Below, piece by piece: positions 46,339 to 46,400 of a stretch of DNA of 64,000 nt. Every line of letters starts with the position of its first letter. The first letter of the stretch is position 1. This DNA is from Rhizophagus irregularis (lineage: Eukaryota), in NCBI RefSeq assembly GCF_026210795.1, contig NC_089429.1, forward strand, positions 5,518,001 through 5,582,000, read 5' to 3'. The notes below the pieces were generated by a model, which was not told where the DNA came from, made no database searches, and saw only the letters and a list, made by a program, of their open reading frames with translations. The position numbers were made by a program, and so were the translations under genes.

Positions 46339-46400
46339 AGCGGTTTGTCCTAGTACAATTTAATATATTAATATATTAAATTGTACTAGGACAAACCGCT
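46339..46400. repeat. Perfect 62-bp palindrome with 26-bp pure A/T centre
   Basis: AGCGGTTTGTCCTAGTACAATTTAATATATT|AATATATTAAATTGTACTAGGACAAACCGCT; all 31 pairs checked by hand. Confidence 0.98.

Follow-up and report, generated by a model that had tools for sequence, protein, structure and literature searches.

We think it probable that the 62-bp perfect palindrome described here is an opened hairpin telomere, serving also as the site of telomere resolution, in a Polinton-like element integrated in the genome of Rhizophagus. To judge by homologs of neighboring proteins, too, the host is a Rhizophagus. What we observe in favor of this is the terminal position of the palindrome, two-sided covariation between its arms, the fixed spacing of its boxes from the axis, an array of the same boxes alongside, and the gene content of the element. 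That the element belongs to the Polintons or Polinton-like viruses (PLVs) is itself likely. By 'the window' we mean the whole stretch of DNA that was analyzed, 64,000 nt in length, and its features are collected in Table 1.

Table 1. Features of the window that bear on the palindrome and on the element it terminates
Feature	Positions	Strand	Remarks
C-terminal fragment, likely rve-type integrase	2..613	+	broken, cut by window edge
Homing-endonuclease-like ORF	445..1275	+	PHROG 559, E 1.5e-12
A32-like packaging ATPase, frameshifted	1362..2140	+	PF04665 above cut-off
Nested TIR element, 9.7 kb, splits F-box/LRR gene	26657..36325		Plavaka element inside, 28029-34082
Intact 367-aa ORF, tyrosine-recombinase superfamily	37015..38121	-	best matches telomere resolvases
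Nested hAT/BED-type transposon, 8-bp TSD	39103..41494		between helicase and candidate resolvase
UL9-like (Herpes_ori_bp) helicase, PF02399	41708..45030	-	broken by in-frame stops and frameshift
Terminal inverted repeat (TIR), minimum extent	45951..46400		near-identical second copy, 1.35-3.0x flank depth
32-bp tandem array, 4.4 copies	46188..46328	+	box TGTCCTAGTACA at 46216, 46248, 46280, 46312
Terminal perfect palindrome, AG...CT	46339..46400		axis 46369/46370; element's right end
Inner box TGTCCTAGTACA	46346..46357	+	12 bp off axis in 3/3 homologs
Invariant A/T core, 18 bp	46361..46378		same letters in 3/3 homologous palindromes
Outer box, mirror copy of TGTCCTAGTACA	46382..46393	-	inverse of inner box
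Target-site duplication (TSD) AATGC, 5 bp	46401..46405	+	equals last five letters of alternative flank
Single-copy flank, GC 47%, outside element (earlier putative end)	46406..46518		depth

A perfect palindrome

From 46339 to 46400 the DNA is identical to its own reverse complement without a single mismatch, as an earlier note on this DNA had stated. No perfect palindrome in the window is longer—the runner-up is 30 bp, and nearly all A/T—and in block-shuffled windows (n = 30) the longest measures 16–30 bp. The inverted boxes stand as the note described them, but its 26-bp A/T center needs trimming: the spacer between the boxes is 24 bp, and the 26-bp A/T run takes one base from each box. Rfam returned 22 matches, all to miRNA models and far below the gathering score, which is the generic response to a hairpin.

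The palindrome is found in sequencing data, too. Six of 24 listed sequencing runs were compared as Logan contigs; one, X1, is possibly the assembly's own source, and the others come from different studies. Both arms are reproduced with 0 differences in 4/4 runs. One 62-bp contig spans the palindrome in X1, 46-bp contigs lie over its center in X8 and X10, and in X5 the pieces stop at 46368 and restart at 46371. In a second set of four, drawn from the same six runs, the contigs break at 46368/46371 in three, and at 46365/46401 in the fourth. Because contigs break near the axis, as they are expected to do at a palindrome, we take the palindrome to be a true one. No hairpin or fold-back molecule is seen, and no joint at the axis is listed, among the Logan contigs—which are assembled contigs, not reads—and this counts against the hairpin reading. 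Palindromes can arise in amplified libraries, and the contigs differ from the window by one or two small gaps near this one, but an artefact of assembly or amplification is hardly credible when the same sequence and junction recur in runs of different studies, and when diverged perfect palindromes are present in two metagenome contigs.

A variant palindrome, 10 differences removed from the window copy, has a 62-bp contig of its own. For that reason we rejected the idea of a mirror junction, at which a variant copy would continue through this same palindrome. In an older copy the outer arm has suffered a deletion and one-sided changes, so that decay does set in once a palindrome has been inserted. 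The note had remarked that perfection was preserved here in spite of decayed genes nearby. The perfection holds, but no special selection is needed to account for it if each copy is written from a single hairpin at the moment of insertion.

The end of the element

The palindrome had been thought to lie 118 bp inside the element, whose end was placed at 46518. Depth contradicts this. On the left side of the palindrome there is a stack of many diverged copies; on the right side, from 46401 onward, there is one contig of flat depth in 6/6 runs. Repeated DNA reaches no farther than 46400, so it is the palindrome that forms the terminus, and 46401–46518 is flank. This flank is GC-rich (47%), ends in ACTACT, and gives way to A/T-rich host DNA; it has no match elsewhere in the window or among 52 metagenome loci, and it possibly represents the terminus of an older element that received this insertion.

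In at least three of four runs (X5, X8 and X10) the identical palindrome is also joined, exactly at the arm edge, to another flank; among the matches listed for X1 there is no such junction. When this alternative flank is read as a left end it finishes with AATGC, the same five letters with which the window flank begins, a match whose probability by chance is 0.002 for that length and 0.003 for lengths of 5–8 bp. The alternative-flank palindrome is most likely the left end of the element, therefore, with a 5-bp TSD, and by the same TSD the second copy of the TIR would be that left end, known solely as the loose end of a contig. Because the window holds no second copy of the right end, the left end would lie beyond position 1. 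In run X10 the central contig has a depth of 96.6, against 96.5 for inner depth plus twice flank depth; the fit is poorer elsewhere (681 observed against 774 expected in X8, and 29 against 52 in X1). Contig depths show no consistent excess of inner over flank, and no sign of a free form.

There are strong indications, then, of an identical left palindrome with a 5-bp TSD, and if so the whole of 1–46338 lies between the element's ends. GC content is 36–38% in 1–26656, 36326–39114 and 41491–46338, outside the nested transposons, and 24–28% in host DNA to the right; the likeness of those three stretches argues for continuity of the element across the window. The TIR likely reaches to 45600 or beyond. 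Within it, 45797–45858 and 46022–46084 form an imperfect inverted repeat (81%) that is present in the metagenome locus L038 as well, and between the TIR and the start of the helicase gene lie a 15-bp stem with a 36-nt loop (45276–45341) and three short direct repeats (45427–45615).

Relatives in metagenomes

A pattern scan of metagenomes that required both boxes, and allowed a spacer of 14–40 bp, yielded 52 loci, six of which were also compared with the window by BLAST. Two are homologs, L038 and L018; 28 represent one unrelated MITE-like family; and 22 are tandem or chance matches. L037 and L043 were left out of the homologs: both boxes are there, but the spacer between them is 20 bp long and not a palindrome. 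The MITE-like family, from Ga0307513 and Ga0307517 (L001 2100–2250 and 27 other loci), is an inverted repeat of ~156 bp with TGTCCTAGGACA boxes. IMG/VR gave no match to two patterns and four protein queries, and prokaryote genomes gave none to the palindrome pattern.

L038 is 79% identical to the window over about 400 bp upstream, then has a perfect palindrome of 58 bp, and then unrelated DNA; L018 has a palindrome of 64 bp, followed directly by an interrupted hAT transposase frame. The palindrome is thus terminal at all three loci. All three begin AG and end CT, with one extra pair in L018. Two-sided changes occur at 5 of 22 pairs and one-sided changes at none, in three sequences that were selected by the two-box pattern; the compensatory changes for which the earlier note proposed looking are indeed there, and both relatives end as the window copy does. 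The spacer is 24 bp in 3/3 palindromes, and the distance from box to end is 7, 5 and 7 bp. Because the former is fixed while the latter varies, the box appears to be phased to the axis, as it would be for a dimer acting across it. In the adjoining array the box repeats right up to the palindrome, with a period—32 bp—of about three helical turns; L038 has the array also, phased to the inner box of its palindrome.

The palindrome could be no part of the element's workings at all, but an independent micro-MITE or a functionless by-product of insertion and repair. An unrelated MITE-like family with similar boxes does make up 28 of the 52 loci, and the outer arm is damaged in one of the older copies. 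Nevertheless this seems very improbable, and the dispersed micro-MITE, which the note had named as fatal to its own reading, can be rejected: no TSD belongs to the palindrome alone, the one present pairing with the far end of the element; its inner side is continuous with TIR and array, and in L038 it adjoins the array just as it does here; and its length (58–64 bp), AG...CT ends and core are all conserved.

A candidate telomere resolvase

The 367-aa ORF is 8.2 kb away from the palindromic terminus—5.8 kb if the nested hAT transposon is discounted—and is likely inside the element. Its predicted structure (pLDDT 73, pTM 0.52) was compared with 48,161 chains by VIA-align. The top four are all telomere resolvases, which form hairpin telomeres in bacteria and phages: TelA (Z 11.6, 258 residues aligned, rmsd 6.8), TelA again (11.1), TelK (10.2) and ResT (8.5). 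The next match scores 6.9, and an integrase 5.9; Cre is not among the matches listed, the best 50 of the 48,161 chains, which does not exclude it. ESM features point the same way, with PF16684 (ResT-TelK_cat) in 19 of 30 matches at a score of 0.96. Foldseek places TelA first, with best TM-scores of 0.39–0.40, but its E-values for TelA (8.0e-3) and Cre (9.3e-3) nearly tie, and it finds no match to the model at E ≤ 0.001. Among viral structure models integrases and resolvases are mixed, the EhV-86 resolvase ranking third. No ResT/TelK match was found by Pfam in 33/33 members of the family, and searches of PDB, Pfam and PHROGs with the family's sequences yielded nothing informative.

The predicted catalytic residues, assigned by conservation, are R199, K232, R301, Q330 and Y341. 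Among the 58 of 220 relatives that cover all six positions examined, 39 have R-K-R-H-Y, and 11 have Gln in place of His, as the window copy does; because Gln replaces the catalytic His, that copy may be inactive. Integrases typically have a His three residues before the second Arg. Here, His occupies that position in 1/58 relatives, and Lys in 29/58. One search returned 74 relatives and another 527, and those of the 74 that are named are all from the Glomeromycota; the family occurs in Rhizophagus, Glomus, Funneliformis, Gigaspora, Dentiscutata, Diversispora, Entrophospora, Paraglomus and Geosiphon. Five distant relatives (P0184, P0217, P0244, P0251 and P0257) differ in composition and have the same conserved residues. 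The family may extend beyond these fungi.

Self-priming terminal hairpins are known from parvo- and poxviruses, and the palindrome might be one of these, its ends renewed by nicking and fill-in, with the ORF of the tyrosine-recombinase family serving as a second integrase or riding along as a passenger. Covariation and terminal position fit this equally well, and the Cre-like Foldseek matches and the Gln at the His position lean toward it. So does the architecture of certain elements of Halocafeteria seosinensis, which share a palindrome in the TIR beside the TSD and a replicase other than pPolB (10.64898/2026.07.28.741278); the part of that description consulted mentions no resolvase, and palindromic ends may therefore work without one. 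We consider this rather unlikely, even so. VIA-align, the ESM features and the Foldseek TM-scores all favor telomere resolvases over integrases, and the invariant symmetric core and fixed box-to-axis distance suggest that a protein reads across the axis.

Other genes, cargo and nested elements

The gene nearest the palindrome, 1.3 kb away, encodes the UL9-like helicase. It matches only positions 32–215 of the 820 in the UL9 profile, the N-terminal quarter. Its own N-terminal domain may be a primase: a model of low confidence (pLDDT 47) finds human PrimPol second, with a Z of 6.7, among ties. In the oriS of herpesviruses, an A/T-rich palindrome center lies between inverted boxes for UL9, and the palindrome with its 32-bp array might likewise be mainly an origin, oriS-like or of iteron type, that the helicase opens at the A/T core, its terminal position being secondary. 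The A/T-rich center between inverted boxes, the box repeated every 32 bp up to the palindrome, and the proximity of a helicase of the Herpes_ori_bp family all recall such an origin, which would also be compatible with the hairpin reading, as a second role for the array. As the main function, it is improbable. It gives no reason for an end that coincides with the outer arm, or for a mirror that stays perfect as far as the junction; the 8-letter UL9 box is absent within one mismatch from both strands of 45001–46600, the boxes present having another sequence; and of UL9 only the helicase part is matched. The kinship with oriS proposed in the note fails, accordingly, on position and box, and the helicase match is partial.

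At the other end of the window, the A32-like ATPase is 46 kb from the right end and would belong to the element. The fragment at 2..613 has no Pfam or PDB match, but by resemblance of motifs it is a likely rve-type integrase; an atlas search leads from it to unnamed nematode and rotifer clusters, including one in which 50% of the members have a chromodomain. A Pfam scan of 43 window ORFs recognized neither a capsid gene (double jelly-roll) nor pPolB; the element's left part lies beyond what the window covers.

The span ascribed to the element holds other genes and repeats besides. Two with Crinkler N-terminal domains, at 15774–18371 and 19204–20692, lie within it, one with an NTPase-like part, and there are F-box/LRR genes at 24395–26660 and 36326–36641, one of them split by the nested TIR element. 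A 26-bp motif recurs (22048, 23105 and 24392) where three consecutive cargo ORFs of the minus strand have their 3' ends, in the manner of cassettes. A MITE-like insert occupies 4402–5634; it has TIRs of 40 bp and includes a 72-bp tandem array. The stretch 10322–10401 has an inverted match (88%) at 62487–62567, and GC climbs at the right edge of the window, which suggests that another related element begins there.

How the ends might work

If the palindrome is an opened hairpin telomere, the element's free form would be linear DNA with covalently closed hairpin ends. Such a replicon accounts for the whole set of observations while assuming little. The helicase, perhaps with its primase domain, would replicate the element, and the resolvase would cut the resulting head-to-head junctions at the A/T core and reseal them as hairpins. 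For insertion, a DDE integrase would nick each 31-bp hairpin at its base, after CT-3', and join the nicked end to host DNA with a 5-bp stagger. Fill-in by the host would then unfold the hairpin to give a perfect 62-bp palindrome that stops always at CT. Because each arm corresponds to one strand of the same hairpin, any change in the palindrome would be two-sided. Were the resolvase to cut at both palindrome axes, the whole element would be released with no information lost. The 18-bp core is the predicted zone of cleavage and refolding; a dimer of the resolvase would read the boxes at their fixed distance from the axis, and the box array may load the resolvase or act as the helicase's origin. 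A symmetric core, inverted at both ends, suits a resolvase, which cannot be said of lox-type excision.

The note's suggestion of a telomere-resolution site gains support from all this, in that its candidate recombinase models as a protelomerase fold and the palindrome covaries across relatives. The candidate resolvase and the palindromic ends are linked at one locus only, and at that locus helicase, ATPase and putative integrase are all broken.

Comparison with known systems

Our comparisons draw on parts of the published sources. Terminal palindromes have been reported in endogenous virophages (subtypes 1, 2, 5 and 6) and a PLV (subtype 4) of Halocafeteria seosinensis (10.64898/2026.07.28.741278), and ends of this type were thus already known. 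Those palindromes are 52 nt long, lie beside TSDs and are linked to non-pPolB replicases, and hairpin priming was proposed for them (10.64898/2026.07.28.741278). The Rhizophagus element has the same end, a palindrome of similar size where the TIR adjoins the TSD, together with non-pPolB replication genes, a likely RVE integrase (here a fragment) and invasion by transposons. It differs in its fungal host, its UL9-like helicase and its predicted protelomerase-fold gene; covariation and a phased box array are shown for it here; and it is at least 46 kb long with nested insertions, and no capsid gene is seen in the window. The words 'resolvase' and 'protelomerase' occur 0 times in the portion of the preprint consulted, and some of the virophages have an unspecified 'Yrec' (10.64898/2026.07.28.741278).

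With the TelN/telRL system of N15 and those of TelK, TelA and ResT, the element has in common a perfect palindrome of similar size, with a symmetric core, and, on the same DNA, a gene whose product is predicted to share the fold of their enzymes; telRL of N15 is 56 bp (PMC13236599). The phaeovirus EVEc of Ectocarpus also has a protelomerase, and one internal telRL-like site by which the circle is linearized, but it integrates and excises by means of a separate tyrosine recombinase at att sites (PMC13236599). In the Rhizophagus element, unlike EVEc and N15, two palindromes would themselves form the ends of the integrated DNA, with a 5-bp TSD as their boundary.

Polintons characteristically have AG...CT termini. 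The element resembles them in this, in its TIRs, A32-like ATPase and likely rve integrase, and in a TSD within the 5–7 bp range reported for integrated PLVs. It differs in having palindromic ends, with helicase and predicted resolvase in place of pPolB, of which there is none in the part seen. Mavericks/Polintons have been reported from Glomus/Rhizophagus, including Polinton-type ATPases and a capsid-less Glomus Polinton (PMC7805220, 10.64898/2026.06.19.733378); the window, with no capsid gene detected, is similar in that respect. An asfarvirus-related region of 1.5 Mb is something different, and its description, in the part consulted, mentions neither Polintons nor telomeres (PMC10640383). 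In the literature covered, from which subscription papers are mostly absent, no paper joins a protelomerase or telomere resolvase with a Polinton, or a protelomerase with Rhizophagus.

What the finding means

The finding bears on how Polinton-like elements without a protein-primed polymerase copy their ends, and on how they exit the chromosome; the Halocafeteria preprint itself asks for tests of terminal palindromes (10.64898/2026.07.28.741278). With an intact candidate enzyme and a candidate 62-bp substrate at one locus, the question is reducible to a simple cleavage assay. If our reading is true, the locus would also point to a double-stranded DNA virus-like replicon, recently mobile in mycorrhizal fungi, that carries Crinkler and F-box genes, and to a protelomerase with a eukaryotic host for the production of closed linear DNA. 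We hold it quite possible, if short of probable, that arbuscular mycorrhizal fungi harbor widespread, integrating DNA viruses with hairpin ends, whose telomeres are opened by a DDE integrase in order to insert, and closed again by a protelomerase in order to excise. In that case a telomere-resolvase system would be on record for the first time in fungi, and for the first time in Polinton-like elements, and protelomerases may also lie behind the unexplained 'Yrec' genes of virophages with palindromic ends.
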